A stretch of DNA of 64,000 nt from the NCBI GenBank assembly GCA_021781705.1, contig JAJXWI010000007.1, positions 325 through 64,324 of the forward strand, in the 5' to 3' direction. The notes beneath the pieces were generated by a model. That model was not told the origin of the DNA and made no database searches. It saw only the letters and a program-made list of their open reading frames with translations. The translations under genes were made by a program, and so were the position numbers. The stretch is from a bacterium. Its GTDB lineage: Bacteria; Verrucomicrobiota; Lentisphaeria; Victivallales; GWF2-38-69. This document shows, one piece after another, positions 20,668 to 56,445 of this stretch (positions are counted from its first letter, which is position 1; every line of letters starts with the position of its first letter).

Positions 20668-21699
20668 ATGGGTTTTTCAAATGATTTTCCAATACCTCAG
20701 AGTATTGAAATAGATGAATCGACAGCGACTGGTACTTATACTAAATTTACAGCAGCGCCGTTTCAAAGCGGTTTTGGACATACGATCGGCAATTCTATCA
20801 GAAGGGTATTACTTTCTTCTCTTAAGGGCGTTGCAATTTCGGCTATCCGCATTGACGGAGTAACTCATGAATTTGCTACAATGCCAAAAGTCGTAGAAGA
20901 TGTTGCTGAAATAGTACTCAACTTGAAAAAAGTTCTTTTTATAACTCACTCAGGCGCTCCGAAAACTCTTGAGATAAAAAAGAAAACAGCAGGACCGGTC
21001 ACGGCGGCAGATATAATCACCGATGGAACCGTTGAAATCATAAATCCTGAGCAGCTCATTTGTACTTTGGACAAAGATACAAATTTCAGAGTTGAAATGG
21101 ATCTGGCGGAAGGAAGAGGGTTCAGACCTTCAGATAAGAATAAGTTTAGTACTCAGCCTGTAGGCACAATTCCGATTGATTCAAATTTCAGCCCTGTAAG
21201 AAGAGTACGTTATCAGGTAGGCTCTGCGCGAGTGGGAGAAGAAACTGAGATGGACAGTTTAATTCTTGAAGTCTGGACGGACGGTAGAATAACGCCTCAC
21301 TCAGCACTTGAAAAAGCTGCAAAAATACTAAGAGACCATCTGCGCCCATTTTTTGGACAAAATGAAGTGCGCGATGCTTCTTCTCTTGTCAGTGATGAAG
21401 AAAAAGCAATGTTCAAGCTTCTCACACAGAATGTTGAAACACTTAATTTATCAGTGCGTTCGCAGAACTGTCTTAACAACGCCAATCTCAAGCTCATCGG
21501 CGAATTATGTTTGAAAACTGAAGCAAGAATGCTTAAGTATAAGAACTTCGGGAAGAAGTCTCTTGACGAAATAGTTGCAAAACTTATCGCTATGAACTTG
21601 TCACTTGGCATGACTTTCAGCGAATCTATGACGGCAGCAATTCAAATGGAATCGCAGGCATTAAATCCAAATTCAACAAATGTTCAGGAAAGTAACTAA
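20668..21699 (+). CDS. rpoA: DNA-directed RNA polymerase alpha subunit
   Basis: The ATG at 20668 is preceded by AGGAGAGG. Motifs include GFGHTIGNSIRRVLLSS, and a C-terminal domain LNLSVRSQNCLNNANLKLIGEL...NFGKKSLDEI. Confidence 0.95.
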   Translation: MGFSNDFPIPQSIEIDESTATGTYTKFTAAPFQSGFGHTIGNSIRRVLLSSLKGVAISAIRIDGVTHEFATMPKVVEDVAEIVLNLKKVLFITHSGAPKTLEIKKKTAGPVTAADIITDGTVEIINPEQLICTLDKDTNFRVEMDLAEGRGFRPSDKNKFSTQPVGTIPIDSNFSPVRRVRYQVGSARVGEETEMDSLILEVWTDGRITPHSALEKAAKILRDHLRPFFGQNEVRDASSLVSDEEKAMFKLLTQNVETLNLSVRSQNCLNNANLKLIGELCLKTEARMLKYKNFGKKSLDEIVAKLIAMNLSLGMTFSESMTAAIQMESQALNPNSTNVQESN

Positions 21700-21702
21700 A
21701 TT

Positions 21703-22128
21703 ATGCGTCACAAAAAACATACGTTTAAAATAGGAAGAACGGGTGCTCACAGAACCGCCCTTCTAGCAAACCAGGTTTGCAGTCTTGTTTTTTCTAAAGA
21801 AATAAAGACTACTCTAGTAAAGGCTAAAGAAACTAAGAGGCTTGCTGAAAAGATGGTAACTCTTGCAAAAAAGGGGACACTCCATGCAAGACGCCTGGCT
21901 ATCAGCAAACTGCGCAACAAAGATGCCGTTAAGGTATTGTTCGACGAATTAGCCCCGCAATATACGGAGCGGAAAGGCGGATATACAAGAATAATACAGC
22001 TCGGACAGCGCATAGGAGATGCCGCCGAGATATGCATACTTCAGTGGGTAGGCGAAATAGGGAAAGTTGAAAAGAAAGCCACTTCAGCTAAGAAAGTTGC
22101 AGAAAAAGTAGAAGAAAAGAAAGCTTAA
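21703..22128 (+). CDS. rplQ: 50S ribosomal protein L17
   Basis: MRHKKHTFKIGRTGAHRTALLANQ...TTLVKAKE.KRLAEKMVTLAKKG...GGYTRI. Confidence 0.95.
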   Translation: MRHKKHTFKIGRTGAHRTALLANQVCSLVFSKEIKTTLVKAKETKRLAEKMVTLAKKGTLHARRLAISKLRNKDAVKVLFDELAPQYTERKGGYTRIIQLGQRIGDAAEICILQWVGEIGKVEKKATSAKKVAEKVEEKKA

Positions 22129-22162
22129 GTTTAGCTTTTAAAGCTAATGTTTGAATCGAGTA

Positions 22163-22191
22163 GGAGGTAGCCAAGTAATTGAGCTACCTCC
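22163..22191. terminator. Stem-loop between convergent rplQ and the GGDEF gene (possible bidirectional terminator)
   Basis: GGAGGTAGC (22163-22171), an 11-nt loop, then GCTACCTCC (22183-22191). There is no clear U-tract on either strand. Confidence 0.35.
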
Positions 22192-22223
22192 CTCTCGTAC
22201 TACCGCACATACAGTCATGGTGC

Positions 22224-23126
22224 TCAGGTCTCTATACGATTTCTGCCATTATTCTTTGCCTTATATAAAAGACTGTCAACTATGGCGATGAATTCATCAA
22301 GTTTATGTTGTCCATTATATTGACTGATTCCAGCGCTAAAAGTAATTTGCCTGCCTGGGGCAGATTCAAATGAAAGATTTTTAATACTGTCAAGACATTT
22401 CGTTACGACGGCAATTGCTCCTTCAATAGATACATTAGGCAATATAATAAGGAACTCTTCACCTCCGTATCTGCCGATGATATCGGACTGCCGTAAATTT
22501 TGTTTAATAAAAGAACATATTTTTACAAGGACTTCATCGCCGGCTAAATGGCCAAAATGGTCATTTACTGATTTAAAGTGGTCAATATCAAATTCAACCA
22601 ACGACAAAGGCAACGAATATCTTTTACTAGTATAAATGGCCTTTTCAAGTTCTTTCAATATATGACGTCTGTTAGGGACACCGGTCAGAGCATCTGTATT
22701 AGCAAGTAATTCCATCTTAGTTAAAGCAAGGTGCAATGTATCTTCAGCTTTTTTAATTCTCAACAAATTAGATATTCTAATCAATAATTCTATTTTCTTA
22801 ACAGGCTTCGATTGATAATCAGTTGCGCCGCTATCAAAAGACTTTATCAGAGTGTCGTCGTCAGTATCGGAAGTAAGTATTATAATTAATATGGATGGGT
22901 AGAGCTTTTTAATCATGAGTGACAGTTCGTGACCATCCATTTCCGGCATCATAATATCGGAAATAACGATATCAGGAAGATTGGTATTGTGTTCTTTCAG
23001 GTATTCAAGGGCTTTAACGCCATTTTCTGCATCAGCAACATCATAACCTCCCTCTGAGACAAGACTTTTTAGAAAAGCCCGTTGCGAAATAGAGTCTTCG
23101 ACCAGTAAAATTTTCCCTGTTTCCAT
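22224..23126 (-). CDS. Response regulator receiver + GGDEF diguanylate cyclase (WspR/PleD-like)
   Basis: From the ATG at 23126: METGKILLVEDS...DIVISDIMMPEMDG (receiver with the acceptor Asp), a coiled linker, then a GGDEF domain with RYGGEEF preceded by an RQSD (RxxD) I-site. The start lies 2 nt after the cheR stop. Confidence 0.85.
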   Translation of the reverse strand: METGKILLVEDSISQRAFLKSLVSEGGYDVADAENGVKALEYLKEHNTNLPDIVISDIMMPEMDGHELSLMIKKLYPSILIIILTSDTDDDTLIKSFDSGATDYQSKPVKKIELLIRISNLLRIKKAEDTLHLALTKMELLANTDALTGVPNRRHILKELEKAIYTSKRYSLPLSLVEFDIDHFKSVNDHFGHLAGDEVLVKICSFIKQNLRQSDIIGRYGGEEFLIILPNVSIEGAIAVVTKCLDSIKNLSFESAPGRQITFSAGISQYNGQHKLDEFIAIVDSLLYKAKNNGRNRIET

Positions 23127-23128
23127 AT

Positions 23129-24601
23129 TTAATACCACCCTTTTTCTCTTATTTTCTGTATATTGTTTTTGCATGCCCTCAATATGTTTTCTGCAGACAA
23201 GTCCTGACAAAATTTTATCGGTTTGTCCCTGTTTTTTCCTAATAAATTAACAGCGTTATTGTACTCTCTTAAGGCGTTATTATAATTTTCCTGACATAAA
23301 TATATGTTCCCAAGATTAAAATAAGCCAACACAATTTCAGGATCAATATAAATAACCTTTTTGAATTGGGCTTCTGCCCCTTTTAGGTTGTTATCCCTGT
23401 CCAATAGTACGCCTAAAAAATAATGTGCATCTACAAACAAACTATCTAACTCTATTATTTTTGTCAGTAAATTAATTGCTTCTGTATACTTTTCCTGATT
23501 TGCCAGAATTGTTGCTTGGGCAAAATAAGAAGGGATATTGTACATATCCTGAGCTATTATTTTATCGAATACGGAGAGAGCATTTTCATATTTTTTATTG
23601 TTGAACTCTATTACGGCTTCCTTATAAAGCTGTTTTAGCTCATTAACGGGCTCTGTTTTTTCTTCTATTTGTATTTTTTTTGTAGAAGGATAATCTTGAA
23701 GCTTAATCTCAGGGATACTGATAAAGGGGACTATCTCTTTTTTACTTTTTCCAGTAGTTGCTTTTTTGTAAACGAACGCCTGCGGAAATTCAGACCTGCA
23801 AAATTTATCGGTTACCTGCCATAAACTTTCTGTATCTCCCAAAAAAAGATACCCATCAGATTTAAGATTATAGTAAAAACTCTCAATTACTCTTTTTGTG
23901 GTCGCCGAATCGAAATATATTATCACATTCCTGCAAAAAATAAGATCCAGGTTTTGCATTTTTTCTGATGAATATGCCTCCGTTGCCAGATTGTGCCTTT
24001 CGAAGCTTACAAGATCCTTTACCGACTTGTTTAGAATATATTCAGAGTCTCTTTTTATGAAATATTTATTTAAAAGAGTTTCAGGTAACTGGTTGATATC
24101 TTTTTTATTAAAGATTGCTTCTTTTGCGGCATTAATCGCAATTCTGTTTATATCTGTACCAAGAATACAAATGTCCCAGTCTTTATAGGAAGGGAGAACT
24201 TCCATTATGGCCATTGCGATAGTATATGGTTCATCTCCTTTAGAACAAGCTGCTGACCAGATTCTTATGGATTTATCCTTTGAATAAGTTTTTCTTTTGA
24301 TCATGTCGGGTAAAATGAATTCTATCAATGATTCAATTTGGGGCCTATTTCTATAAAAATGAGTTTCTCCCACGGTAATTAAATCAAACAGTTCACACAG
24401 TTCAAAATATTTGTTGGTATGAAATTTTATATAATTATAATACTCCAGATAGGTATTGAATTTATGTTTTTCCATTCGTTCATTTACGGCGGCGCAGAAG
24501 AAGGTGATGTTATCTTTATTAAAATAAAGACCACTTTCTTCAATAAGTAATTCCTGAAAAAGTTTAAAAACATCCTCAGATAGATCTAAGCCGCTTTTCA
24601 T
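23129..24601 (-). CDS. cheR: Chemotaxis protein methyltransferase CheR fused to C-terminal TPR repeats (WspC-like)
   Basis: ETHFYRN, the SAM-binding IRIWSAACSKGDEPYTIAM and IFCRNVIIYFD. The C-terminal ~170 aa are TPR-like (AINLLTKIIELDSLFVDAHYFLGVLL..., AYFNLGNIYLCQENYNNALREY). Confidence 0.85.
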   Translation of the reverse strand: MKSGLDLSEDVFKLFQELLIEESGLYFNKDNITFFCAAVNERMEKHKFNTYLEYYNYIKFHTNKYFELCELFDLITVGETHFYRNRPQIESLIEFILPDMIKRKTYSKDKSIRIWSAACSKGDEPYTIAMAIMEVLPSYKDWDICILGTDINRIAINAAKEAIFNKKDINQLPETLLNKYFIKRDSEYILNKSVKDLVSFERHNLATEAYSSEKMQNLDLIFCRNVIIYFDSATTKRVIESFYYNLKSDGYLFLGDTESLWQVTDKFCRSEFPQAFVYKKATTGKSKKEIVPFISIPEIKLQDYPSTKKIQIEEKTEPVNELKQLYKEAVIEFNNKKYENALSVFDKIIAQDMYNIPSYFAQATILANQEKYTEAINLLTKIIELDSLFVDAHYFLGVLLDRDNNLKGAEAQFKKVIYIDPEIVLAYFNLGNIYLCQENYNNALREYNNAVNLLGKNRDKPIKFCQDLSAENILRACKNNIQKIREKGWY

Positions 24602-24604
24602 TAG

Positions 24605-25093
24605 CTAGTCCTTTTTTTTAACCTGCTCAAGGATATCCATTTCTTTCTTGCTTAATATTTCTTCTAAATTAAAGATGGTAATTACTCTTTCATTTATTCT
24701 TGCAATACCCGTAATATAGTTGTTTTCAACCTGAATCGAGATCGCATTTGGCGTGGGCTGGATATCCTCTTCTGACAAGCTTAGTACTTCCATTACGCTA
24801 TCGACAATAAGACCGATGATGAACTTATTTACTTTGCAGAGGATAATTCGTTTTTTGGGCGTATTTTCTATGATGTTAATTCTGAATTTCTTTCTTAAGT
24901 CCATTATTGCAAACATCTTGCCTCTTAGGTTAATTACGCCTTCAATAAAGTCAGGCACCTGTGGTAAATGATGAATTTCTAGTGGTTTTAATACTTCTCG
25001 TACACAGGATATGTCTAGCCCGAATTGCTCATTCATAAGAGTAAACACGAGAATGTGTTTAATTTGTATTTTTTCTTCTGTTTCCTGTTTCAT
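24605..25093 (-). CDS. cheW: CheW-like coupling protein (second copy)
   Basis: ILVFTLMNEQFGLDISCVREVLKPLEIHHLPQVPDFIEGVINLRGKMFAIMDLRKKF. I prefer the ATG at 25093 over the TTG at 25144 used by the ORF track. Confidence 0.8.
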   Translation of the reverse strand: MKQETEEKIQIKHILVFTLMNEQFGLDISCVREVLKPLEIHHLPQVPDFIEGVINLRGKMFAIMDLRKKFRINIIENTPKKRIILCKVNKFIIGLIVDSVMEVLSLSEEDIQPTPNAISIQVENNYITGIARINERVITIFNLEEILSKKEMDILEQVKKKD

Positions 25094-25106
25094 ATTCTTT
25101 TTTTCT

Positions 25107-26174
25107 TTAAATACTTTTAACAATCTCTTCACAAATTTTTTCAATCGGTAATATTTTATCTATTGCACCTTCATCTATAGCCGCCTTTGGCATGCCATAC
25201 ACTACGCAACTTTTCTCGTCTTGCGCAATTGTCAATCCTCCCATATCTTTTACAAGTTTCATTCCTGCGGCGCCATCTCTGCCCATTCCCGTCAATATCA
25301 CACCTATCGCTTCTTTTTTATAGTTTCTGGCTACAGATTCCAGCAACACATCTCCCGAAGGTTGAAAATCATTATTGTTGGCTGAATCATGGATAAGACG
25401 TATCTGTCTTTCGTCTACTCTCATCTGCAAGTCGCAAGGAGCAATATATGCCGTTCCAGGCAATATTGTTTCTGAGTTTTCTGCAGTCTTTATAGTAATT
25501 AAACACCTCTCTTTAAGCCATTCTATCAAACCCTCAACAAAGCCGCTTGCTATATGCTGCACAATAACTATGGCGCATGGGAAGTTTTTTGGTATATTTT
25601 TAAGTATCTCAAGCAATGCAGCAGGTCCTCCGGTCGAGGAAACAATAGCTACAATTCTATTAGCAGCATTTCTGCAGGAATCTTTTGTATAATCAATTCC
25701 TTGTTGTGGCGCCGGTATTTGCGGCATTATATGACGAATTACCTTGATTTTGCTTAACAATACGACCTTGCTTATCAGCTCTTTTTTAAATATATCATTT
25801 GCTGGAGTTTCTGTCTGGCCTTTTTCTATAACATCCAGAGCGCCATAGGAGATTGCTTTAAATACATTACTTTTTGCATCCTTCGAGAAAGGTGAAGAAA
25901 TAACAAGTATGGGGGTGGGATTTTTTGACATTATACTCTGGATAGAATCAAAATCATTCGGGGACGGTATGTTAATGCTCATAATAATTATGTCGGGTTT
26001 TATTTTTGGTACAACCTCGACAGCCTCTTTCCCATTATGAGTTCTGCAAGCAACAATGAAATTTGGATTTGCGTTTAATATGTCTGTTATGACTTTACAT
26101 GATAAAGGCGAGTCTTCGACCAATAAAATTCTGATTATATTTTTTAATTCTGGTGACATTTTTTCTTTTTTCAT
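25107..26174 (-). CDS. cheB: Protein-glutamate methylesterase CheB (WspF-like) with an atypical receiver domain
   Basis: The catalytic domain is intact: IVAIVSSTGGP, VIVQHIASGF, ILTGMGRDGAAGM. The N-terminal receiver aligns with E. coli CheB, but PDVLTLDVEMPRMDG corresponds here to PDIIIMSINIPSPND, so Asp56 is replaced by Ser. Confidence 0.85.
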   Translation of the reverse strand: MKKEKMSPELKNIIRILLVEDSPLSCKVITDILNANPNFIVACRTHNGKEAVEVVPKIKPDIIIMSINIPSPNDFDSIQSIMSKNPTPILVISSPFSKDAKSNVFKAISYGALDVIEKGQTETPANDIFKKELISKVVLLSKIKVIRHIMPQIPAPQQGIDYTKDSCRNAANRIVAIVSSTGGPAALLEILKNIPKNFPCAIVIVQHIASGFVEGLIEWLKERCLITIKTAENSETILPGTAYIAPCDLQMRVDERQIRLIHDSANNNDFQPSGDVLLESVARNYKKEAIGVILTGMGRDGAAGMKLVKDMGGLTIAQDEKSCVVYGMPKAAIDEGAIDKILPIEKICEEIVKSI

Positions 26175-28420
26175 CCGATTAATCTTTCAATAGTATCAAG
26201 AAGATTTGTTTGATTAAATGCTGTCTTTACGATATAGGCCTGCGCGCCAACTTCAAAGCCGTGCCTTTTATCTTCCTCTTTGTTCATGGAAGTGACAAGT
26301 ACCACAGGGATATCCTTATACTCTTCATTCTTTTTTAGGGTGCTGCAAAGGTCAAAGCCGTCCAATCTTGGCATTTGAACATCTGAAATTATGAGGTCGT
26401 ATTTTGTCTGTGCTACTTTATCCAGACCGTCTAACCCATCAACGGCGATATCAACAATATAATCGTGTGCTTTTAAAATATTTTTCTCAAGTTCTCTTGT
26501 TGAGAGCGAATCATCTACAATAAGAATCCTTTTCTGATTAGTTATTTTATTATTTTGCGGTTGTCCTTCCTGTGTAACCGCGGCGGGATATCTCTCAAAA
26601 GTCTTACTATGCTTAATTAAATCTATCACATCCAGAATGATAACGACTTCGCCAGAGCTAAGAATCGTGGCACCTATAATATTTTTAACATTGCCATGAT
26701 GTTTGCTTATGCTCTTTACAAAAACTTCTTTTTCATTTACTATTTTGTCAACAATAAAACCTACTTTTTTATTTAAGGAACTGATAATGATAACAAACAC
26801 GCTTTCGTTAATTTTCTGTCTTCCTTTTCTATCCTGCTCGTTATCCGTTTCGAGGGGAAGAGATAAAGCTTTGCCCAGCCTAACTACGGGTATTATCTGA
26901 TCTCGTACCTGGATTGCCATCTTTCCTTCAATTGTAGATATATTTTTAACATCAACCTTCAGACTCTCTGAAACAGATGCTGTAGGAATGGCCAAAAATT
27001 TTCCGTATTCCTTTATAAGAAGTACATGTATAATGGCTAAAGTCCGAGGGAGAATTATGGTAAATTTTGTGCCTTTATTCTTTTCGGTCTTTATGAAAAT
27101 CTGGCCATTTAAATTACTTATATCATGCTTAGCTACATTAAGACCAACACCGCGGCCTGAAATATCTGTAATTATCGGACTTGTGGACAAGCCATCCATC
27201 ATTACTAAATTTAAGATACTTTCATCTGGCATTTGGCTTAAATCTTTTTCAGATACAAGCTTTTTATTTAAAGCTACAGTTTTTATCTCATTAATGTCGA
27301 TTCCCTTGCCATCATCTTCTATTGTTATTACAATATTACCTGCGTCATGGAAGGCTTCTAAGTAAATTGTTCCTGTTTTGGGTTTGTTAAGATTTTTTCT
27401 CACGTCAGGGGCTTCAATTCCATGGTCAACACAGTTTCGCAATATGTGCATTAGAGAAGCCTTTATTCCATCCAGAATATTCTTGTCTAGCTCTGTTTCT
27501 TTCCCTGAAATCTTTAAATCTATTAATTTATTTTCCTGCGCCGCTATATCTCTGATCATGCGTGGAAATCCTTCAAAGGTAGTCGAGCAGGGAATCATCC
27601 GTATCTGCTTTATGTTGTTTTGCAATTCGTCTATAATCGGATCTAAGCAAAAGGCCTCGGATGAAATATTATTGTGTAGCAAAGTAGAAATTTCTTTTAA
27701 TTTTTCTATATTGGCATCGCATTTGCCTAGGGTATTTTTAACGTCTCTATTCTGGAAAAGTGTATCCTTTTTAATTTTATCGCTGATAAAAGATAATTCC
27801 GTCTCTGTTTCTTTTACAATTTTTAAAAGTTTCTTGATTTGATCTAGTTTCGCAGAGTTTCCCGTCTTGTTTATCATTAGCATGCCAACCAGATTAAAAA
27901 GGTTGTTTATCCTATTTAACGGAACCTGAACATATTCCTGGATTGGTTCATGTTCTTTACTCGTAACAGAACCATCTCTATGTATTGGAGGTTCAACGTC
28001 ATATGTAAAATTTTCAGCAGATTCTTTTTTCAGAGAGGGCTGCGAAAGAAGAGACTCATCCAATTTTCTACAAGCTGCAGATACTACACCTGATTTTTCT
28101 TCTGTTAAGATTCCCTTCAAAATTTTTCTGATAACATCAACAGCATTGAATATGGAGTCTGCAATTAATGAAGAAAAAGTTATTTTTTTTTGTATAATAC
28201 CGACAAAGATATTTTCTATTCTATGAGATATTTCCTGAATCTCAAGAAAATTAAACATTCGACTTGAGCCTTTAAGTGTATGCGCCGCCCTATTTAGTTC
28301 TGTTATAAGCCCATCATTATCAGGCTGGTTTTCCAACTCCACCAAACCGTTATCTAATTTAGTTAAATAACCTTCTGCTTCTACCTTAAATAATTCAATA
28401 AAATCTTGTTCTTTAGGCAT
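26171..28420 (-). CDS. cheA: Hybrid chemotaxis histidine kinase CheA with a C-terminal receiver (WspE-like)
   Basis: Hpt LNRAAHTLKGSS; HATPase HILRNCVDHGIE, DDGKGID, GRGVGLNV; a CheW-like domain; and a C-terminal receiver ILIVDDSLSTRE...DLIISDVQMPRLDG...YIVK. I prefer the ATG at 28420 over the TTG at 28468. A 4-nt overlap joins it to cheB. Confidence 0.9.
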   Translation of the reverse strand: MPKEQDFIELFKVEAEGYLTKLDNGLVELENQPDNDGLITELNRAAHTLKGSSRMFNFLEIQEISHRIENIFVGIIQKKITFSSLIADSIFNAVDVIRKILKGILTEEKSGVVSAACRKLDESLLSQPSLKKESAENFTYDVEPPIHRDGSVTSKEHEPIQEYVQVPLNRINNLFNLVGMLMINKTGNSAKLDQIKKLLKIVKETETELSFISDKIKKDTLFQNRDVKNTLGKCDANIEKLKEISTLLHNNISSEAFCLDPIIDELQNNIKQIRMIPCSTTFEGFPRMIRDIAAQENKLIDLKISGKETELDKNILDGIKASLMHILRNCVDHGIEAPDVRKNLNKPKTGTIYLEAFHDAGNIVITIEDDGKGIDINEIKTVALNKKLVSEKDLSQMPDESILNLVMMDGLSTSPIITDISGRGVGLNVAKHDISNLNGQIFIKTEKNKGTKFTIILPRTLAIIHVLLIKEYGKFLAIPTASVSESLKVDVKNISTIEGKMAIQVRDQIIPVVRLGKALSLPLETDNEQDRKGRQKINESVFVIIISSLNKKVGFIVDKIVNEKEVFVKSISKHHGNVKNIIGATILSSGEVVIILDVIDLIKHSKTFERYPAAVTQEGQPQNNKITNQKRILIVDDSLSTRELEKNILKAHDYIVDIAVDGLDGLDKVAQTKYDLIISDVQMPRLDGFDLCSTLKKNEEYKDIPVVLVTSMNKEEDKRHGFEVGAQAYIVKTAFNQTNLLDTIERLIG

Positions 28421-28610
28421 TCTTTTTACTCTGTTCCTTCCATGAAACTCCAAACATCGATCTTTCAACTTTCAATGTTTCAAAATTCTACTTCGATGTG
28501 CTGTCGGGGCGACATCACCGATGGCGCCGTTATACTCGGATGTTTCGCCAAAATAACTCTATTACGATACATGATTGTCTTGATAAAACTCCGAAAAATG
28601 GAGATCTCCG

Positions 28611-30146
28611 CTAATTGGCTATTACATCGTAATTCTGCTTGATATTCCCTTTTTCTTTAATTGCAATATCCTCTCCACCAAACTTAAACATTTCTAACGC
28701 TTGTTTTAATTCTTGAGATAACTCTGCCAACAGGACAGAAGAGGAGGCTGTTTGTTTGGTAGATAATACGAATTGTTTAATTGTATTATCAATACTCAAA
28801 ATTACCTGAACCATCTGTTCTGATGCGTATTTTTGCTGCTGGGTTGACAAAGAAATTTCCTCGGCTGCACCGGCTGTTTCTTTTACTTGATCTAAGCCTT
28901 TTGTAACCCATTTAGTAGAGTCTTCAATCCCCATAATAGTGGCATTTATTTCACGCTGAATCTCTGTTATCAGTTGTCTTATTTCTTCGGTGGATTCAGA
29001 GGAACGTTCTGCAAGCTTTCTCACTTCCTGTGCAACGACAGCAAAACCTTTTCCCGCTTCTCCTGCCCGGGCAGCCTCAATAGCGGCATTTAAAGCCAGC
29101 AGATTGGTTTGCTCGGCTATACTGTCTATAAGGTTTGTAATACTTCCTATGGCTTGTGATTTCTCACCTAAAGAAAGAATTTTAGTGGCAGTTGCGTCAA
29201 CTTTAGCTGTTGTTTCAGTCATGTCTATTAAAGTTCGTTCTGCAAATTTTGCCACTTTTTCCGCATTGGAAGCGATCTGAACGGCAGTAGCAGAAAATTC
29301 CTTGACTGTGGATGAGATCTGACTGATTGATGTAGACTGGCTGGTGGCGCTTGTAGACTGTTCTTGAACAGAAGAACGGATTTGCATAGCAGCAGAGGCT
29401 GTTTGAAGGCTGGCTTCCTTTATTTGGCTTAAAAGCGTTTTTAATCTTAAAATTGTTTGATTAAATACCTTTGCTAATTTTTTCAATAATTCATTGTCTG
29501 TATTCTCGTTTGCCTTGACAATAAAATCACCTTTGGAAAAGCTGTCTAATAAGGCATAATATTCAGATAATCCTATCGCCATTTCAAGAGATTGATTTAC
29601 CAATTCCTGTACGCCTTGCGCAGTTAAATTAATTTCATGATTCAATTTGCTCAGTAATTCATTTTCTGATTTCTCGGACGCTCGTACTGAATAGTCTCCC
29701 TGAGCCAACTTATGCAACGCCTCGAAAGCTTCACATAATCCTATCGCCATTTCATGAGACTGATCTACAAAATCCTGCACGCCTCCGGCCGTCAGATTAA
29801 TTGCATGACTAAATTTATTCAACAATTCGTTTTCATATTTTTCGGAAGCGCGCGCTGAAGGATCTCCCTGGGCTAACTTGCCCAACACCTCAATGTCCTC
29901 AGATACGGCTAAAGATAACTCCAGTGATGCACTTTTCGCCTTGCGTAGATCTCTCGCAATCTGATTGAACTTACACAGGATCACTGCCATCGTAATAACA
30001 ACTATAATAATTCCCGCTGCTGCTGCATTCAAAGCAATGGTACTTATTAGGGGAGGATTTAAAAAAAGTAAAATTTCCAATGCAACCACTAAAAGAATTA
30101 TTACCACTAACGCTAGTTCTACAAATTTCACACTTATCCATTTCAT
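28611..30146 (-). CDS. Methyl-accepting chemotaxis protein: N-terminal membrane hairpin, tandem HAMP-like repeats, no periplasmic sensor domain
   Basis: Two adjacent TM helices (aa ~9-29 and 33-58) are joined by a very short loop. Three repeats contain GD-x-S-x-RA...ENELL...IN. The C-terminal signalling domain carries the conserved hairpin [44 protein letters not shown]. Confidence 0.9.
29454..29921 (-). repeat. Intragenic tandem repeat, 168-nt unit (56 aa), about 2.8 copies, inside the MCP gene
   Basis: The plus-strand string ATAATCCTATCGCCATTTCA recurs at 29567 and 29735 (offset 168 nt). The protein copies [47 protein letters not shown] and [47 protein letters not shown] are followed by [29 protein letters not shown]. 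Confidence 0.85.
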
Positions 30147-30218
30147 AACGACTAACCTTTAATTAGACTAAGCCTACAAATTAACCTTAATTACATTTTT
30201 TCTAAAGATAAAATGCGG

Positions 30219-30443
30219 TTAAAACTGAATTTGTATCCTGAGCTTTCCTGCCCCTTCATCTTTCACTGAAAGAATTACTTTCTTCATTCTTTCAGCCCAG
30301 ACTCGCGCATCTTTCTCAAAAGTTGGGCAATCGCCCAGCACCTCCAGAATTTCACCCGGTTTCATATCCGGTGACATTACTGCTAATTTAAGAATCGGCT
30401 GAGGGCATTTTAACCCTAGTGCATTTAATACTCTTGATTCCAT
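30219..30443 (-). CDS. TusA/SirA-like sulfur-carrier protein
   Basis: 74 aa with LNALGLKCPQPILKL (the conserved Cys-Pro-x-Pro motif of the TusA family). Confidence 0.75.
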   Translation of the reverse strand: MESRVLNALGLKCPQPILKLAVMSPDMKPGEILEVLGDCPTFEKDARVWAERMKKVILSVKDEGAGKLRIQIQF

Positions 30444-30515
30444 GTGTTTAATCCTCTTCTGTTATTTTTTCTATTAATTTCTCGTACCCAAAACTAATAG
30501 TTTCTTTACATTGTA

Positions 30516-31985
30516 TTAATAATCTCTTCCAATTTCCTGTATTAAGTTTCTGTTTTTGTCATATATTTTTATCAACATAGGCATATCGCCCGGAAAACTA
30601 TGCGTGGCGCAGCCAAGACATGGATCATATGCCCTGAAAGCGATCTCTACCATATTCAACAAACCTTCAGAAACATTCCCTCCTTTTATAAAGTTAGAGG
30701 CGGCTTTTTCAATAGACATACAAATGGCTGCAGCATTATTCTGCGTGGATACTATCAGGTTTACATCTCGAATTAAACCTTTTTCATCTGCTTTATAATG
30801 ATGAATTAAGGTGCCTCTCGGCGCTTCTATCGCGCCAATTCCCTCAGATGGCGCTTCTTTAGGAAGATTTCTTATGTTGGGATCTGTCAGTTCAGGATCA
30901 TCTGCCAGTTCGGTCATTCTTTCTGCCGCGTAAAGCCCTTCAATGAGTCTTGCCCAATGAAAAGCCAGGGTGTTGTGTAGAGGTTTAGCGCCTAAAGTGT
31001 CATACATCCTTTCATATTCTATTTGCGCTAACGTCGTCGTCATACCTTCAGAGACATTTAGCCTGGCCAATGGCGCAACTCTGTAAATTCCGCTGTCTTT
31101 ACCATCAATAAACCCTTTCCATCCGATATTTTTTAGATATGTGAACTTCATGTAGGTCCATGGTTCAACATGTTCCGCAATGTGATGGAGATAATCCTCA
31201 GGCTTAAACTTTGCATATTCTTTCCCGTCAGGATCTACTACTCTAATCTGGCCGTCATAAAAACTGACTTTGTTTTCTTCGTCAACCATCCCCATATAAT
31301 AGGTCTTGATTTTGTAAATATCGCCTGCAATTAGATCAACATACTCCTTGTTTTTAAGGACAACATCGTCAAAAATTTTCAAGGCAAATCTGTAAAATTC
31401 AACTCCATACTTTGCTACTTCCTTAATTTTTTTTCTATCATCTTCGGTTAATGGTTTTGACACTCCTCCGGGAAGACCAAAAACGGGGTGAATAGCCGTG
31501 CCGCCTATAGTCTCCATGATTTTTCTGCACTCTTTTCTCAATCTTATCACCTTGCCGGCTGTTTCTTTTCCAACTTTCGCTATAACTCCAAGAATATTCC
31601 TCTGGGAAGCGGGAGCTTGGGTGCCGACGATAAAGTCCGGTCCGCCAAGAAAGAAGAAATGAAGCGCATGATCCTCCATTAAAAAAGCAGTGTACATAAG
31701 TTCTCTTATTTTCTTTGCGGCGGAAGTTGGGTCTACTCTATAAAGGGCATCAAGGGCCTTGCTCGATGCAATATGATGCGCGGTGGGGCAAACGCCGCAA
31801 ATTCGTGAGGTAAGAATAGGCATTTCTTCAGCAGCTCTGCCCTCACAGAATTTTTCAAATCCCCGCAGTTCCGGCACTTGGAAATATGCCTTATCCACAT
31901 CACCGATATCATTTAAAAAAATTTCTATTTTCCCATGCCCTTCTACCCTGGTTACAGGGTTTATAATAATGCTCCTACTAGTCAT
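30516..31985 (-). CDS. mvhA: [NiFe] hydrogenase large subunit, Mvh/group 3c-like
   Basis: N-terminal RVEGHGKIEI, proximal Ni ligands RICGVCPTAHH, C-terminal DPCLGCATHS followed by a ~27-aa tail (a maturation protease substrate). Context: mvhG, mvhD and hdrA lie upstream. Confidence 0.85.
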   Translation of the reverse strand: MTSRSIIINPVTRVEGHGKIEIFLNDIGDVDKAYFQVPELRGFEKFCEGRAAEEMPILTSRICGVCPTAHHIASSKALDALYRVDPTSAAKKIRELMYTAFLMEDHALHFFFLGGPDFIVGTQAPASQRNILGVIAKVGKETAGKVIRLRKECRKIMETIGGTAIHPVFGLPGGVSKPLTEDDRKKIKEVAKYGVEFYRFALKIFDDVVLKNKEYVDLIAGDIYKIKTYYMGMVDEENKVSFYDGQIRVVDPDGKEYAKFKPEDYLHHIAEHVEPWTYMKFTYLKNIGWKGFIDGKDSGIYRVAPLARLNVSEGMTTTLAQIEYERMYDTLGAKPLHNTLAFHWARLIEGLYAAERMTELADDPELTDPNIRNLPKEAPSEGIGAIEAPRGTLIHHYKADEKGLIRDVNLIVSTQNNAAAICMSIEKAASNFIKGGNVSEGLLNMVEIAFRAYDPCLGCATHSFPGDMPMLIKIYDKNRNLIQEIGRDY

Positions 31986-32950
31986 TTTAATCTCCTTTTT
32001 CTTTTAATCAGTGAAGAAGCAAGCGTAAACCTGTAAAAGGTTCCAGTCATATCAGCAACAGAATCTACTACTTTTTTAATTTCTTCTTCATCATTAAAAT
32101 CTACTATCGATGCCAAGGCTGAGAGAAACTTGCTTCCCTGATCAATAACATTATCAGTTGGGCCAAAACATCCGCGGCATGGCATATTTGCTTTTATGCA
32201 TCTTTCGCCGCAGCCTGACCTCGTGGCCGGACCGAGACAGATAAGCCCCTGGGCTAGGAAACACTTCTCTGGATCAATGATTACCTCATGCGGCCTTTTT
32301 ATCTCTTTTAGTGTCATTATATCCGGTTTTGAATCCTTTCGCGAACAATTCTCGCATAAAGTCTTTGCCGGTCCTATAACCGAGCCTTTTGGGGGCAGGT
32401 TGTTTTCTAAAATAGCAGTAATTGTCTGCATTATAAGATCAGGTGAAGGCGGACATCCGGGCAGATAATAGTCTACATCAATAACCTGGTTTAACGCCTT
32501 CACGGTGTCATAAAATTCTGGCAATTCAAGCTCGCCCGATGCTGTTTTGGTTTTTACTTGAGGTTCTTTTCCTTCCGGATTGATGACGCTTGGCGCTTCG
32601 CGATACACTTTTTTTAAAATGCTTTCTCTATCCCAAAAATTTGCCAGCGCAGGTATACCTCCCAAGTGGGCACAACTGCCGAAGGCGATAATCAGCTTTG
32701 ATTTTTTCCTTAAAAGACGAACGGTTTCTTCTTGTTCATTTAATCGTATGGCGCCGCTTATAAAGCTAACATCTATTTCATTGTCATTCATGTTTTCTAT
32801 ATCTGCATACTTAAAATCCAAGGCGATAGGCCAGAAGACGATATCCACTGCCTCAATAACCTTTAATATATCTTCGTTTAAGTCTAGCACAGCCTCTTCG
32901 CACCCGCCACAGCTAGCTTCCCAGCAAAACGCAACTTTAGGCTTTATCAT
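31982..32950 (-). CDS. mvhG: [NiFe] hydrogenase small subunit, Mvh/group 3c-like
   Basis: CWEASCGGCEEAVLDL, GSCAHLGGIP, and C-terminal Cys clusters (CENC, CLGPATRSGCGERC, CRGC). A 4-nt overlap joins it to the large-subunit gene. Confidence 0.8.
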   Translation of the reverse strand: MIKPKVAFCWEASCGGCEEAVLDLNEDILKVIEAVDIVFWPIALDFKYADIENMNDNEIDVSFISGAIRLNEQEETVRLLRKKSKLIIAFGSCAHLGGIPALANFWDRESILKKVYREAPSVINPEGKEPQVKTKTASGELELPEFYDTVKALNQVIDVDYYLPGCPPSPDLIMQTITAILENNLPPKGSVIGPAKTLCENCSRKDSKPDIMTLKEIKRPHEVIIDPEKCFLAQGLICLGPATRSGCGERCIKANMPCRGCFGPTDNVIDQGSKFLSALASIVDFNDEEEIKKVVDSVADMTGTFYRFTLASSLIKRKRRLK

Positions 32951-32973
32951 TTTCTATCAACTCCTTGGAATGT

Positions 32974-33390
32974 CTAAATCAATGCTTCGTTTCTCAGTGG
33001 TCCTAGTGACTTTACGTTTTTCACCATTTCTGACACTATCGTAACAAACTTATCATCTTCGGTAGAGGAAACCCAATCCAGCTTAAAGCGTCCTTCTTCA
33101 ATTCCCAATTCCATCAGCACCTTCTTTAAAAAGTGGTACCGCCTCAGAATGTTATAATTTCCTTCCTTATAATGGCAATCACCGGGATGACAACCCAGGA
33201 TCAAAACTCCATCAGCGCCTTCCTTAAAAGCTTCCAAAACAAATTGAGGATCGACTCGTCCACTGCACATAACCCTGATAATATTTATGTTTTGGGGGTA
33301 GGTTTTTCTGGAACTGCCGGCTTTATCTGCGCCAGCGTATGAACACCAAGAGCATAAAAATGCTACTATTCTGGGTTCGAAATTGTTCAT
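32974..33390 (-). CDS. mvhD: Methyl-viologen-reducing hydrogenase delta subunit (MvhD)
   Basis: PRIVAFLCSWCSYAGADKAG...VMCSGRVDPQFVLEAFKEGADGVLILGCHPGDCHYKEGN is the characteristic MvhD Cys pattern. Confidence 0.85.
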   Translation of the reverse strand: MNNFEPRIVAFLCSWCSYAGADKAGSSRKTYPQNINIIRVMCSGRVDPQFVLEAFKEGADGVLILGCHPGDCHYKEGNYNILRRYHFLKKVLMELGIEEGRFKLDWVSSTEDDKFVTIVSEMVKNVKSLGPLRNEALI

Positions 33391-35360
33391 TTCATAATCT
33401 CCTTGATTTCAGCTGTTATCTCACATGAAGTGAAATGTCTAGCTTTAACAGCCCCGCTTGGGCAGGCAGCCGAGCATATTCCGCATCCTTTACATAAAAT
33501 ATCATTAATTGCAGCAACCTTTTTCTCCTTGTCAAAATAAATGGCTTTATAAGGACAAAGCCCGATGCAAATTTTGCAACCGCTGCAAAGTTTTTCATCT
33601 ATTTCAGCTATCGTTGCCTCCAATTTTAGTTTTTCTCCGGGAACAAGACATGAGAGGATTTTTCCCGCGGCAGCCGCGCCTTGGGCTACAGAACTCTGAA
33701 TATCCTTTGGACCCTGGCAGCATCCGGCTATGAATATTCCCCCAGTTGTCGTGCTTACTGGCGCCAGCTTGTCATGCTCCTCCGTAAAAAATCCATCACT
33801 TCCCAATGTGATATCAAATAGTTGAGATATTGAGGTAGCGTCTTCGCTTGGTTCAATCGCGGTAGACAGTATTACCATATCTACTGCAAGTTTACTTTCC
33901 TTGCCGGCAGCATCTTTGTATTTTACAACCAGACTGCCTGCATCTTCATTGACTTCTACGGCATCAGGGCCGGCAGTGCGAATTAGATTCACCCCGTCTT
34001 CTAAAGCCTTATCGTACAATTCATGATATCCCTTGCCCGCCAAAGAAAAATCGGAATAAAAATTAAAAACTTCTGTATTTGGCGATTTCTTTTTGATTAT
34101 ATGCGCAAATGTCAAAGAATACGTACAACAGACACCGGAGCAATAGTTATGAAATTTCTTACTTCTCGAACCCACGCAATGAATGATAGCTGCAGATTTG
34201 GGCGATTCCCCGTTTTTTAGGATAACTTCTCCGCCCGTGGGACCCGTTGAACTTAATATTCTTTCAAACTCCAATCCAGTATAAATATTTTCAAACTTTC
34301 CATAGCCGGAGCGGGGAATTTTATTTGCTATAAACGAATCAAAGCCCGTAGCCAGAACAACACTTCCCACTTTTATTTCGATGATTTCATCCTGATCATC
34401 AAAATTAATGGCGCCGAAAGGACAGTTAGCTTTGCAAATTTCACATTTCTTTTCTTCCGTGTTTTCAGTAGCTTTGTTTCTGAAATGAAGGCAATTTTTC
34501 CTGTCGATAACAGCTACATTAGGGAGTGCCCCGACAAATGGTATGTATATAGCTTTTCTTTCGTTTAAGTTCTCATTATATCTATTTTTTACATTAACGG
34601 GACAAGCCTCAAAACAAGCTCCGCAGCCTAAGCAGGTTTCCGTGCTGACGGAACGCGCTTTCTTTTTAATCTTTATTATAAAATTCCCAAAATAGCCCAA
34701 AACTTCATCAACGACGCTATAAGTGAAGACATGAATATTATTTTTATGTAAAATCTCATCCAGTTTGGGGTCTAGCATGCACGTGGCGCATTCAAATTTC
34801 GGGAAGACATCTTCATATCTGACTACTCTCCCCCCAATATTCGGAGATTTTTCTACCAAATAGACTTTTCGTCCCTTTTGCGCAAGAACAAGCGCTGCTT
34901 CTATTCCAGCTACTCCAGCACCTACTACCAAAGCGTCAGGAGTACAATCAATTTCTTTATTTACTATTGGTTGGTGAAGCAAAACCCGACTTACTGCTGT
35001 TCTGATAATTACTTTGGCCTTTTCTGTAGCTATGACTTTATCGGAAATTACCCAGGCGCAGTGCTCCCTGATATTTGCTATTTGAACTAAATAGGGGTTT
35101 AATCCAGCTTCTTCGGCTATTTTCATAAAGGTGCTTTCGTGCTCTTTGGGAGAGCAGGCGGCGATAACTACCCTGCTTAAGTTTCTCTCTATTATTTCTT
35201 TTTTCAGTAATGCCTTTCCCGCTTCTGCGCACAGAAGGGTATGAGATTTAACGAAGGCTACATGGGCTAAAGAGGACGCATATTTTGCTATTTCTTCAAC
35301 GTTTAAAGCCTCTTTTATATTTGGTCCGCACTCACATATAAAAACGCCAATTCTTTCCAT
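33387..35360 (-). CDS. hdrA: HdrA-like FAD/FeS heterodisulfide-reductase subunit A (flavin-based electron-bifurcation type)
   Basis: 657 aa with N-terminal GVFICECGPNI, an FAD fold DALVVGAGVAGIEAALVLAQKGRKVYLVEKSPNIGG, several CxxCxxCxxxCP ferredoxin motifs (CLGCGACFEACP, CSGCKICIGLCP, CKGCGICSAACP), and 4-nt overlap with mvhD. Confidence 0.85.
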   Translation of the reverse strand: MERIGVFICECGPNIKEALNVEEIAKYASSLAHVAFVKSHTLLCAEAGKALLKKEIIERNLSRVVIAACSPKEHESTFMKIAEEAGLNPYLVQIANIREHCAWVISDKVIATEKAKVIIRTAVSRVLLHQPIVNKEIDCTPDALVVGAGVAGIEAALVLAQKGRKVYLVEKSPNIGGRVVRYEDVFPKFECATCMLDPKLDEILHKNNIHVFTYSVVDEVLGYFGNFIIKIKKKARSVSTETCLGCGACFEACPVNVKNRYNENLNERKAIYIPFVGALPNVAVIDRKNCLHFRNKATENTEEKKCEICKANCPFGAINFDDQDEIIEIKVGSVVLATGFDSFIANKIPRSGYGKFENIYTGLEFERILSSTGPTGGEVILKNGESPKSAAIIHCVGSRSKKFHNYCSGVCCTYSLTFAHIIKKKSPNTEVFNFYSDFSLAGKGYHELYDKALEDGVNLIRTAGPDAVEVNEDAGSLVVKYKDAAGKESKLAVDMVILSTAIEPSEDATSISQLFDITLGSDGFFTEEHDKLAPVSTTTGGIFIAGCCQGPKDIQSSVAQGAAAAGKILSCLVPGEKLKLEATIAEIDEKLCSGCKICIGLCPYKAIYFDKEKKVAAINDILCKGCGICSAACPSGAVKARHFTSCEITAEIKEIMK

Positions 35361-35364
35361 AACC

Positions 35365-35886
35365 TTAATACTCTGGTATGCTATCGGGATTTATAATTTC
35401 TTTGTCCAATATGTTTTTCACATTTAATATTCCAAGAAGCCTGCCGTCTGCTCTGCACTCTCCCTCTATATATTCTGCATATTCAACGGGAATAGTGGTA
35501 AGTGGTGGAGCTATCATACTTTTAGGCACTTCTGTTATATTAATAACTTCGTCAACCAAAAGTGCCGACTCGTAAACTCCTGAAGTTATAACTATCAGCC
35601 TTGATTTTTCAGTTATTTTTTCCTTCTGCAATCTAAACAACTTTTTCAAATCTATTACCAGTAAAATATCTCCTTTAAAATTTACAACCCCTTCAATGTC
35701 TTTCGGACTAGAAGGAAGGTATGTAATCTGAAATGATTTTACAACTTCTTTTATACTTGAAATTTCTATGCCATACCACTCTTGCTTCAAGCGAAAGATT
35801 AAGAGTTTTTCAGTTATTATGCCAGCTTTTGCAGGTTCGTAAAACTCTTCTTCGTATAAAGATATATTTTTTTCTTCTCTTTGCAT
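35365..35886 (-). CDS. cheW: CheW-like coupling protein (first copy), directly upstream of hdrA
   Basis: LLIFRLKQEWYGIEISSIKEVVKSFQITYLPSSPKDIEGVVNFKGDILLVIDLKKLF. Its stop codon lies 4 nt from the hdrA ATG. Confidence 0.8.
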   Translation of the reverse strand: MQREEKNISLYEEEFYEPAKAGIITEKLLIFRLKQEWYGIEISSIKEVVKSFQITYLPSSPKDIEGVVNFKGDILLVIDLKKLFRLQKEKITEKSRLIVITSGVYESALLVDEVINITEVPKSMIAPPLTTIPVEYAEYIEGECRADGRLLGILNVKNILDKEIINPDSIPEY

Positions 35887-35995
35887 TGCACTACATTCCT
35901 AACCTCATTTCATCTTTATTAAGAACTTGTCATTTTGTTGATGCCGAGGCATTTGATTAGAATACTATCATCTCTCGAGGAAACTATATGACCGC

Positions 35996-36024
35996 ATTAT
36001 ATCAAATAACTAAAGGCCATACAA
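35996..36024 (-). promoter_or_regulatory. Candidate extended -10 promoter for the cheW-hdrA... string
   Basis: On the minus strand: TTGTAT (36024-36019), a 17-nt spacer, then TGATATAAT (36004-35996), about 110 nt upstream of the cheW ATG. Confidence 0.35.
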
Positions 36025-36296
36025 GCAGTACGTTGCACAAAAGATCGTTTTTGTTTTGCCAGTCGATAACGGGAATGGGTTTGCTCTCCATAATAAAATA
36101 AACAAAGGATTAGGCAGAGAAGTGTATTTGCAGAATTATATCCCACCGCGGGAGAGCAACCCCAATGAGAACATAATTGGCCTTATAAATTCCGCTGCGG
36201 AATTTATGAGGGACGTATCGAGAAGAAAATATCGAACCCCTTGCGGCATACTTTACAGAACTCTTACATAAAGATAACGCAGGTCTGGTAAGAAGT

Positions 36297-36782
36297 TTAA
36301 AGTTTGTACCAGAAATCGTTCGGAAGAGATGTGCCTGTTTGCTTTTTGTAGCCATATTCTACTCCTCTCATGTAGCGCGATTCTTTATCCGGAAACACTT
36401 TTTTGTAAATTTCCTTTTGTATTTTTATCCATGCTTTAGCTAATTTTCCAAATGCAAACCGATCTTTATTTGTGCCATAACACTTCCCAGCACCAATGCC
36501 GTCTGAATAAGCTGGCGGAACTTCGCCATCTTGACTGCTTGCCTCACTAGTTTCTAATATGTTGTTTTTGTCTTGAATATCTAATTCTTTTATCGTTTGG
36601 GCTAAAACCCGCAACTGTTGTTCTCGATCTAGGTTCATAGTTATACTTTTAAGGAGTGCCGATACTACCTGGTCTGACACTTCACTACTTTTCTCTGCCG
36701 CAGTAGATACACCAGTTACCACAAGCAAGCCAACTAAATACATCACCACGGTTATTGTGCGGTTAAGATAATTTCTCATCAA
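36297..36782 (-). CDS. Secreted hypothetical protein
   Basis: Signal-anchor MMRNYLNRTITVVMYLVGLLVVTGVSTAA. I recognise no domain. Confidence 0.45.
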   Translation of the reverse strand: MMRNYLNRTITVVMYLVGLLVVTGVSTAAEKSSEVSDQVVSALLKSITMNLDREQQLRVLAQTIKELDIQDKNNILETSEASSQDGEVPPAYSDGIGAGKCYGTNKDRFAFGKLAKAWIKIQKEIYKKVFPDKESRYMRGVEYGYKKQTGTSLPNDFWYKL

Positions 36783-38100: not shown

Positions 38101-38336
38101 TATACTAAACCTGACTGAGGGTTCAAAGCACTTTAAAATATAGAGTTTGCCAAGACTTTCAATAACATTAATATTTTTCCTATCTGTATTGATCCCTTTT
38201 TGTTGGCGTATCTCTCTTGCCTCAAAGCCAAAACACTATTAATTATTCATTCTTGCAAGATCAACTGCTTGCTGTATACGTTGCGTTATAATATAATTCT
38301 AAGATAGAAATGTGCTAAATTTAGTGAGAGATAATT

Positions 38337-38753: not shown

Positions 38754-38777
38754 TTTAGAACTCAGGAATAACAATAT

Positions 38778-56422: not shown

Positions 56423-56445
56423 TTTCTCTGATTCCTCTTTACTTG

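Follow-up and report, generated by a model that had tools for sequence, protein, structure and literature searches.

Gene content and layout of the cluster

A set of Hdr/Mvh hydrogenase genes lying within a chemosensory gene string was analysed in a stretch of 64,000 nucleotides (nt) of DNA (contig JAJXWI010000007.1 of assembly GCA_021781705.1, positions 325 to 64,324; referred to as the window) from a bacterium of the Victivallales lineage GWF2-38-69. Twelve consecutive genes on the minus strand (positions 22224–35886) encode, in this order, CheW, HdrA, MvhD, MvhG, MvhA, TusA, a methyl-accepting chemotaxis protein (MCP), CheA-REC, CheB, a second CheW, CheR-TPR and REC-GGDEF (Table 1). The gene identities, coordinates and strand given in an initial annotation of the same DNA were borne out by Pfam domain matches; its count of thirteen genes was wrong, as the genes that it listed number 12.

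Table 1. Positions of the cluster features in the window (aa, amino acids; ORF, open reading frame)
Feature	Position	Strand	Evidence
Promoter-like element, TTGTAT - 17 nt - TGATATAAT ((TG)ATATAAT)	35996..36024	-	read from sequence
cheW1, 173 aa	35365..35886	-	Pfam CheW 1.2e-30
hdrA, 657 aa, TusA-linked subfamily	33387..35360	-	Fer4 and FAD domains; PDB 5odc_A
mvhD, 138 aa	32974..33390	-	Pfam FlpD 2.7e-53; 4-nt overlap with hdrA
mvhG, [NiFe] hydrogenase small subunit, 322 aa	31982..32950	-	Pfam Oxidored_q6 3.4e-27
mvhA, [NiFe] hydrogenase large subunit, 489 aa	30516..31985	-	Pfam NiFeSe_Hases
tusA-like gene, 74 aa	30219..30443	-	Pfam TusA 2.5e-15
mcp, 511 aa: membrane hairpin, three 56-aa repeats, MCP signalling domain	28611..30146	-	Pfam MCPsignal 1.3e-38
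Two hydrophobic segments of the MCP, about aa 8-29 and 33-58, with NPP between	29973..30125	-	hydropathy scan
Three 56-aa tandem repeats, MCP aa 74-241	29424..29927	-	self-similarity z 15-31 against shuffles
cheA-REC, ORF of 765 aa, likely ATG at 28420	26171..28468	-	Pfam Hpt, HATPase_c, CheW, Response_reg
cheB, REC and methylesterase, 355 aa	25107..26174	-	Pfam CheB_methylest 4.8e-63; 4-nt overlap with cheA
cheW2, ORF of 179 aa, likely ATG at 25093	24605..25144	-	Pfam CheW 7e-35
cheR with C-terminal TPR region, 490 aa	23129..24601	-	Pfam CheR 4.3e-56 and TPR families
REC-GGDEF, likely ATG at 23126	22224..23210	-	Pfam GGDEF 1.6e-42, Response_reg 1.5e-24

The gaps at the junctions were computed with the most plausible start codons and were 4, −4, 23, −4, 72, 72, 190, −4, 13, 3 and 2 nt from cheW1 to the REC-GGDEF gene. 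The recomputed values reproduce the operon-like junctions described before (a 4-nt gap between cheW1 and hdrA, 4-nt overlaps and two 72-nt gaps), to which the gap of 190 nt between mcp and cheA has to be added as a correction. A terminator scan of the coding strand found no terminator-like site in any intergenic gap, which agrees with the earlier statement that the 72-nt gaps hold no GC-rich hairpin. The extended −10 that had been noted upstream of cheW1 can be read from the sequence at that position; the promoter-like element to which it belongs lies about 110 nt upstream of the cheW1 ATG, and its −35 hexamer fell under the threshold of the consensus scan. A promoter scan yielded 55 promoter-like matches versus 42.4 expected from shuffles and is uninformative on internal promoters. 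No riboswitch or other RNA family was found in an Rfam scan of positions 21000–39500. Judged from this layout, the twelve genes are most likely transcribed as a single unit. Recent horizontal insertion of the hydrogenase genes was considered and rejected, as their GC content at third codon positions (0.36–0.42) is near that of housekeeping genes (0.26–0.37), mvhD (0.42) being the exception.

HdrA is full-length and colinear with the HdrA of Methanothermococcus (PDB 5odc_A; residues 3–653 aligned to 5–647, E 9.5e-172). The best PDB matches of MvhA were 7t2r_D, a bifurcating NiFe hydrogenase (1.8e-121), and the MvhA 5odc_F (2.9e-116). Its translation contains the nickel-iron ligand motifs RICGVCPTAHH (N-terminal) and DPCLGCATH (C-terminal), the latter followed by a C-terminal extension of 27 aa, and relatives at 70–74% identity were found in Aminicenantes, Nitrospirota and Elusimicrobiota. 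The enzyme part is, as judged from these matches, a bona fide Hdr/Mvh complex of group 3c-like type, predicted to oxidise H2. Group 2b sensory hydrogenases have a large subunit without C-terminal extension, and an affiliation with this group was not found: the best structural relatives were Mvh and bifurcating or NAD-reducing enzymes of group 3. A panel of tblastn searches detected no hyp, hycI, hdrB or hdrC gene in the window.

The translated REC-GGDEF protein has a GGEEF active site and, upstream of it, an RxxD motif (RQSD). The initial annotation had described the che genes as a complete Wsp-type set. The set of components is indeed like that of the Pseudomonas Wsp system (WspA-F, WspR), with an MCP, two CheW-like proteins, CheR-TPR, CheA-REC, CheB and a REC-GGDEF protein with GGEEF and RxxD; the wspABCDEFR gene order and a periplasmic WspA-like receptor were not found. 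The cluster thus differs from Wsp in its gene order, in an MCP without periplasmic domain and in the inserted hydrogenase-TusA block. The REC-GGDEF output is particular to the window; in related clusters the last genes are for REC proteins and type IV pili, an arrangement reminiscent of Frz or Pil-Chp, or GAF-GGDEF and PilZ genes are nearby.

Recurrence of the linkage in other genomes

Recurrence of the gene order cheW-hdrA-mvhDGA-tusA-mcp had been set beforehand as a test of the proposed association, and the genomic contexts of the best full-length MCP homologues were inspected for it. The order was present in full in two loci (L171 and L172) and in part in others. An affinity of the window to Omnitrophota was suggested by the best MCP hits and by L171 only. 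In L171, from an Omnitrophota metagenome-assembled genome (MAG; GCA_043813305.1), the genes encode GAF-GGDEF, REC, CheW, a HypA-like protein, HdrA, MvhD, MvhG, MvhA, HycI, TusA, MCP, CheA-REC, CheB, CheW and CheR-TPR, with PilZ further on. L172 has the same core, and behind it lie genes for REC proteins and type IV pili (MshEN-T2SSE, T2SSF, pilin). The closest relative, L174, reads mvhA-tusA-mcp-cheA-cheB-cheW-cheR (MvhA C-terminus 77% and TusA 80% identical to those of the window), L175 reads mvhDGA-hycI-tusA-mcp(CZB)-cheA-cheB-cheW, and a contig of ERZ1426815 reads mvhDGA-tusA-mcp-cheA-cheB-cheW, without hdrA. In L006 the order is different, with cheA-REC and cheB directly upstream of hdrA-mvhDGA-hycI-tusA. 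The Che proteins of the syntenic loci were about 45–58% identical to those of the window. Since the synteny recurs in diverged lineages, it points to a functional link between the Hdr/Mvh and che genes and not to a chance insertion.

The two types of CheW, upstream and downstream, keep their positions in the relatives. CheW1 was 47–52% identical to the upstream CheW of L170–L173 but 31–37% to their downstream CheW, and is therefore taken as a positional orthologue of the former; CheW2 was 50–58% identical to the downstream CheW of L170–L172. Two of these loci lack most or all of the enzyme genes: L170 reads REC-CheW-HypA-like-MCP-CheA-CheB-CheW-CheR and contains no hdr, mvh or tusA, and L173 reads REC-CheW-TusA-MCP-CheA, in which only tusA is kept from the hdr-mvh-tusA block. 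The block is modular, yet it is repeatedly found in the same slot.

The short HypA-like gene between cheW and hdrA in relatives (L171:4048-4302, L172:1850-2095) has no counterpart in the window. It also occurs in the hydrogenase-less L170 (1535-1780), there between cheW and mcp; its product of 81–84 aa covers the first 68 of 112 positions of the HypA profile (E 3e-13). Loci with hdrA-mvhD-tusA and a transducer but no mvhG or mvhA were found as well (L086:7590-12280, L090 and L143), and such a core without hydrogenase implies another electron donor.

The TusA-like protein encoded between mvhA and mcp has two cysteines, C13 in the motif KCPQP (codon at 30405-30407) and C39 in GDCPT (codon at 30327-30329). 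In an alignment of 43 sequences from across phyla (82% mean column identity), both cysteines and KCPQP were invariant, and the subfamily comprises at least 470 clusters at 62–84% identity. An AlphaFold2 model of the protein (predicted local distance difference test, pLDDT, 89.7) was matched by Foldseek to E. coli TusA (3lvk_B) with a template modelling score of 0.87. In the model, C13 and C39 are located in β-to-α loops right before helices 1 and 2. In GDCP, which aligns with DDP of E. coli TusA, the second cysteine stands in place of an aspartate. TusA family proteins are persulfide carriers, and the nearest structures were TusA bound to IscS and YeeD from the thiosulfate uptake complex.

The gene neighbours of TusA were assessed in two samples. 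The first consisted of 80 metagenome loci retrieved by a TusA profile scan and is unbiased as to neighbours. Directly upstream of tusA, a gene for mvhA, hycI, mvhD or hdrA was present in 31 of the 67 loci with upstream sequence (46%), and directly downstream a transducer with the 56-aa repeats of the MCP (see below) was present in about 37 of the 62 loci with downstream sequence (~60%). Where both flanks were available (50 loci), 16 had Mvh and transducer, 14 the transducer only, 7 Mvh only and 13 neither. The second sample was seeded with MvhA and drawn from 80 species-representative genomes; tusA followed mvhA in four of the 80 loci (L006, L037, L043 and L070), three of which had a repeat-module transducer beside tusA, L006 having cheA-cheB upstream instead. 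Further arrangements were hdrA-mvhDGA-tusA followed by a PAS histidine kinase in two Desulfobacterales loci (L084, L085) and hdrA-mvhDGA-tusA-MCP(CZB) in a Nitrospirota MAG (L002). Mvh/HdrA, TusA and signal transducers are thus linked across Desulfobacterales, Nitrospirota, Omnitrophota and further lineages. TusA is the hub that bridges Mvh/HdrA and the transducers, a point that was absent from the initial annotation, as was the lack of hdrBC.

The presence of hdrB and hdrC near these loci was determined by tblastn. In the MvhA-seeded sample, hdrB or hdrC was nearby in 48 of the 76 TusA-less loci (63%) and in none of the four TusA-linked ones; neither gene was present in any of the 34 loci with mvhA in the TusA-seeded set. 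The HdrA sequences followed the same division. HdrAs of the TusA-linked class shared a mean identity of 60%, versus 43% between classes, and the nearest neighbour was in-class in 18 of 18 cases. Among the fetched loci, the 15 nearest to the HdrA of the window were all TusA-linked (54–60% identity), whereas HdrBC-linked HdrAs were 39–47% identical to it. Class outweighs taxonomy here, because an HdrBC-linked locus from Omnitrophota (L020) has an HdrA that is only 44% identical to that of the window. The HdrA sequences are grouped by class and not by taxonomy, and the TusA-linked HdrA is judged from these comparisons to be a separate subfamily.

The two classes also differ in cysteines. C139 and C439 of HdrA are conserved in ~90% of the TusA-linked HdrAs and absent from the HdrBC-linked ones, and near residues 519 and 548 the pattern is opposite, with cysteines in the HdrBC-linked proteins and none in the TusA-linked ones. 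C101 was rejected as a cysteine specific for the TusA class, being common to methanogen HdrA. Likewise, the idea that MvhA forms a sensory clade of its own was rejected; the protein is not set apart from HdrBC-linked MvhAs, and only HdrA separates.

The MCP had been described as a membrane hairpin with HAMP-like repeats and no periplasmic ligand-binding domain. The hydropathy profile agrees with the hairpin and with the lack of a periplasmic domain, as only an NPP loop connects the hydrophobic segments; the term HAMP-like holds weakly, the Pfam HAMP match (E 0.065, 14 bits versus a cut-off of 25) being under the family threshold. A weak profile-profile match of the repeats to canonical HAMPs was obtained with hhalign (P 2.2e-4, probability 45%), and an AlphaFold2 prediction of the repeat region without alignment gave a helix-loop pattern, but with a pLDDT of only 50. 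The repeats are 61%, 43% and 32% identical in pairwise comparison, and share 41–50% identity with the N-terminal parts of the histidine kinases that are encoded downstream of tusA in L037 and L070. When 1.84 billion representative proteins were scanned in full with phmmer, 306 matches were returned, on account of which the repeat module is regarded as a narrow family and not as generic HAMP. Among 80 representatives, the outputs joined to it were histidine kinase (34), MCP (11) and GGDEF (10), and also HD or EAL. One module with many outputs is typical of a sensory input or transmission module, which is the role predicted for the repeats. A transcription-factor output was seen as well: in L088 (18189-20138, minus strand), 8 kb from a tusA-kinase pair, a Cys-rich domain and the repeat module are fused to PAS domains and a GerE-type helix-turn-helix.

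Most TusA-adjacent transducers carry an N-terminal domain with seven cysteines before the repeats (pattern CWEFFEC..CP...CWL..GT.C...C..C), for which Pfam gave nothing significant (best DUF2769, E 0.24). The domain is present in two homologues of the MCP of the window (P0242 and P0244) and is also the Cys-rich domain of the L088 fusion.

A predicted sensory pathway and its alternatives

The linkage of the hydrogenase to the chemosensory genes is strongly supported, and what we infer beyond it concerns the mechanism and the direction of signalling. With slightly better than even confidence, the genes are read as one unit encoding a chemosensory pathway in which HdrA-MvhDGA and the two-cysteine TusA would serve as cytoplasmic sensory front end. 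MvhAG would oxidise H2, and the electrons would pass via MvhD to the flavin of HdrA. Without HdrBC nearby, the high-potential branch would determine whether TusA is present as dithiol or as disulfide or persulfide (its redox or sulfuration state). One of these forms would bind the triple repeat array of the membrane-anchored MCP; this would alter the activity of CheA-REC, and thereby the phosphorylation of REC-GGDEF and the level of cyclic di-GMP (c-di-GMP), with CheB and CheR giving adaptation. H2 cannot be a universal cue, because some relatives have no mvhGA; the common denominator would be the redox state of HdrA.

A wider reading is put forward tentatively, and we would not be surprised if it failed. 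In this reading the two-cysteine TusA would replace HdrBC as the partner of the HdrA subfamily and act as a diffusible protein-thiol messenger. The 56-aa module, which often comes with the seven-cysteine domain, would read TusA and, in several phyla, feed histidine kinases, chemoreceptors, diguanylate cyclases and transcription factors, and the window would hold the Che/c-di-GMP version of a repurposed, bifurcating HdrA-Mvh signalling system.

Several observations weigh against the proposed sensory pathway. The MCP of the window lacks the Cys-rich N-terminal domain of most TusA-adjacent transducers, and in half of the TusA loci no Mvh gene can be recognised upstream. The hydrogenase is dispensable for the pathway, since mvhGA are missing from L086, L090 and L143, the whole block from L170, and all of the block except tusA from L173. 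The genes for HdrBC could be encoded elsewhere in these genomes, unlinked to the cluster; hdrA and hdrBC are unlinked in some methanogens. Internal promoters could be present in the gaps of 72 and 190 nt. Finally, MvhA is equally close to HdrBC-linked MvhAs (up to 73%) and to TusA-linked ones, and its C-terminal extension, together with the HycI protease in relatives, is as in catalytic hydrogenases.

An MvhA that is indistinguishable from the metabolic group 3c enzymes and has a C-terminal extension, the HycI and HypA maturation genes of relatives and the che operon of L170, which is complete without the block, would all fit co-expression only. An ordinary metabolic Hdr/Mvh, H2-oxidising and ferredoxin-reducing, would have landed in a che operon and been retained since both sets of genes are needed under shared conditions, no signal passing between them. 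We consider this unlikely. The linkage recurs with another gene order (L006) and with other outputs (histidine kinase or MCP) across phyla, TusA lies beside repeat-module transducers without hydrogenase in 14 of 50 loci, and hdrBC is systematically absent next to an HdrA that forms a distinct subfamily.

The identity of the cue may also be questioned. If persulfide on TusA were the signal, HdrA-Mvh would only reset TusA, and sulfur availability, not H2, would be sensed. The persulfide-carrying function of the TusA family and its nearest structures (the IscS-TusA and YeeD complexes) agree with such a sulfur-status sensor, as do the TusA-transducer pairs that exist without Mvh and the CZB domains, which sense via thiols and zinc, in some of the partner MCPs. 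It nevertheless seems improbable, as no cysteine desulfurase, rhodanese or DsrE was seen beside tusA in the annotated loci and the second invariant cysteine fits a dithiol/disulfide couple as readily as a persulfide.

It is very unlikely that the signal runs in the reverse direction, with the Che pathway sensing some other input via the hairpin and repeats and controlling the activity or assembly of HdrA-Mvh through TusA as effector: gene neighbourhood alone gives no direction, and the MCP of the window is membrane-anchored and without the Cys-rich domain, but in histidine kinases, MCPs and GGDEF proteins the repeat module is N-terminal, on the side of the input, the pathway of the window already has a conventional output in REC-GGDEF, and we know of no Che-type output that acts on a redox enzyme via a TusA protein.

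Relation to known systems and surroundings of the cluster

The enzyme genes are like those of the methanogen MvhADG-HdrABC complex (group 3c, PDB 5ODC) in the full-length HdrA, MvhD, MvhG and MvhA and in the order hdrA-mvhDGA. They differ from it in the absence of hdrB and hdrC from the block, in the two-cysteine TusA after mvhA and in being embedded in a che operon.

The TusA/DsrC sulfur relays, including TusA with sHdr, share with the cluster the TusA fold, the CPxP cysteine and the association with an Hdr-type flavoprotein; DsrC has two conserved cysteines, as has the TusA of the window. Unlike in these relays, the second invariant cysteine of the present subfamily is in GDCP and the gene lies beside signal transducers, and, unlike in TusA/sHdr, there are no DsrE, LbpA or HdrBC-like genes near the tusA of the window. 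The repeats may be related to poly-HAMP arrays such as that of Aer2, with tandem units of ~56 aa of predicted helix-loop-helix structure between a membrane or sensor domain and the output, and with the connector motif GD..(V/A)R...(N/D)EL..L...N common to both; however, the module is sub-threshold on Pfam HAMP and a narrow family of 306 representatives.

Precedents for hydrogenases in signalling exist. In HoxBC-HoxJ-HoxA (group 2b), a cytoplasmic [NiFe] hydrogenase is encoded beside a signalling kinase and acts on it (PMC6978683; PMC5037454). The hydrogenase of the window is likewise encoded beside signalling partners (MCP and CheA downstream, histidine kinases in that place in relatives), but it is group 3c-like, with a C-terminal extension, an HdrA partner and TusA as putative intermediary. 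The output of HoxBC-HoxJ is hydrogenase gene transcription, whereas that of the window would be the Che pathway and c-di-GMP. HydDB recognises putative sensory classes by gene context, namely [NiFe] group 2c (diguanylate-cyclase-linked) and [FeFe] group C2 (MCP-linked), and lists group 3c as Hdr-linked and bifurcating only (PMC5037454). Groups 2c and C2 are similar to the present case in the genetic linkage of a hydrogenase to c-di-GMP or chemotaxis signalling, but they are other hydrogenase classes, without HdrA or TusA.

In a genome paper on Omnitrophota and Cloacimonadota, group 3c/Hdr and TusA come up, but only in connection with metabolism (PMC8542988). In full-text literature searches, no paper was found in which Mvh/HdrA and TusA are described together with a che cluster or kinase; no chemosensory cluster of such composition was known to the author of the initial annotation either. 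The two-cysteine TusA and the repeat sensor module are apparently undescribed, and the whole is akin to the putative sensory hydrogenases.

If the proposed pathway is correct, it would provide a third route for sensing H2 or redox state, beside group 2b and the putative 2c and [FeFe]-C classes, by means of a type of enzyme with which methanogens conserve energy. A function would also be assigned to an orphan, highly conserved TusA subfamily, to an HdrA subfamily without nearby hdrBC and to an unnamed module (~300 protein clusters). Attachment, type IV pili or biofilm behaviour might then be tuned to H2-producing partners in uncultured anaerobes such as Omnitrophota-like lineages, Desulfobacterales and Nitrospirota.

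The cluster is convergent with the rpoA-rplQ operon, whose end it faces; its other neighbours are housekeeping genes (YggS, KDO and Lpt genes, CimA, PlsX, FabH, FtsH and Adk). Between the convergent rplQ and REC-GGDEF genes lies a hairpin (22163-22191) with a 9-bp stem, GGAGGTAGC - 11-nt loop - GCTACCTCC; it has no U-tract on either strand and may be a terminator or processing site. Just upstream of the promoter region of the cluster, an ORF of 161 aa (36297-36782, minus strand) begins with a signal-peptide-like sequence and matched no family; the corresponding position before cheW is taken in relatives by a gene for a single-domain REC protein. The cumulative GC skew has its minimum at ~38000-38350, where the genes switch from minus to plus strand (yggS divergent from an ORF of 138 aa), with no dnaA nearby. 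A conserved protein of the GGGtGRT family (PF14057, E 6.6e-194) is encoded at 55421-57753 (minus strand) beside an unassigned ORF of 230 aa and a 6-pyruvoyl-tetrahydropterin synthase homologue. A region of low GC content (59736-63110; 0.31), encoding an AAA_13 ATPase of 800 aa and a DUF2806 protein, may represent a defence or mobile island.

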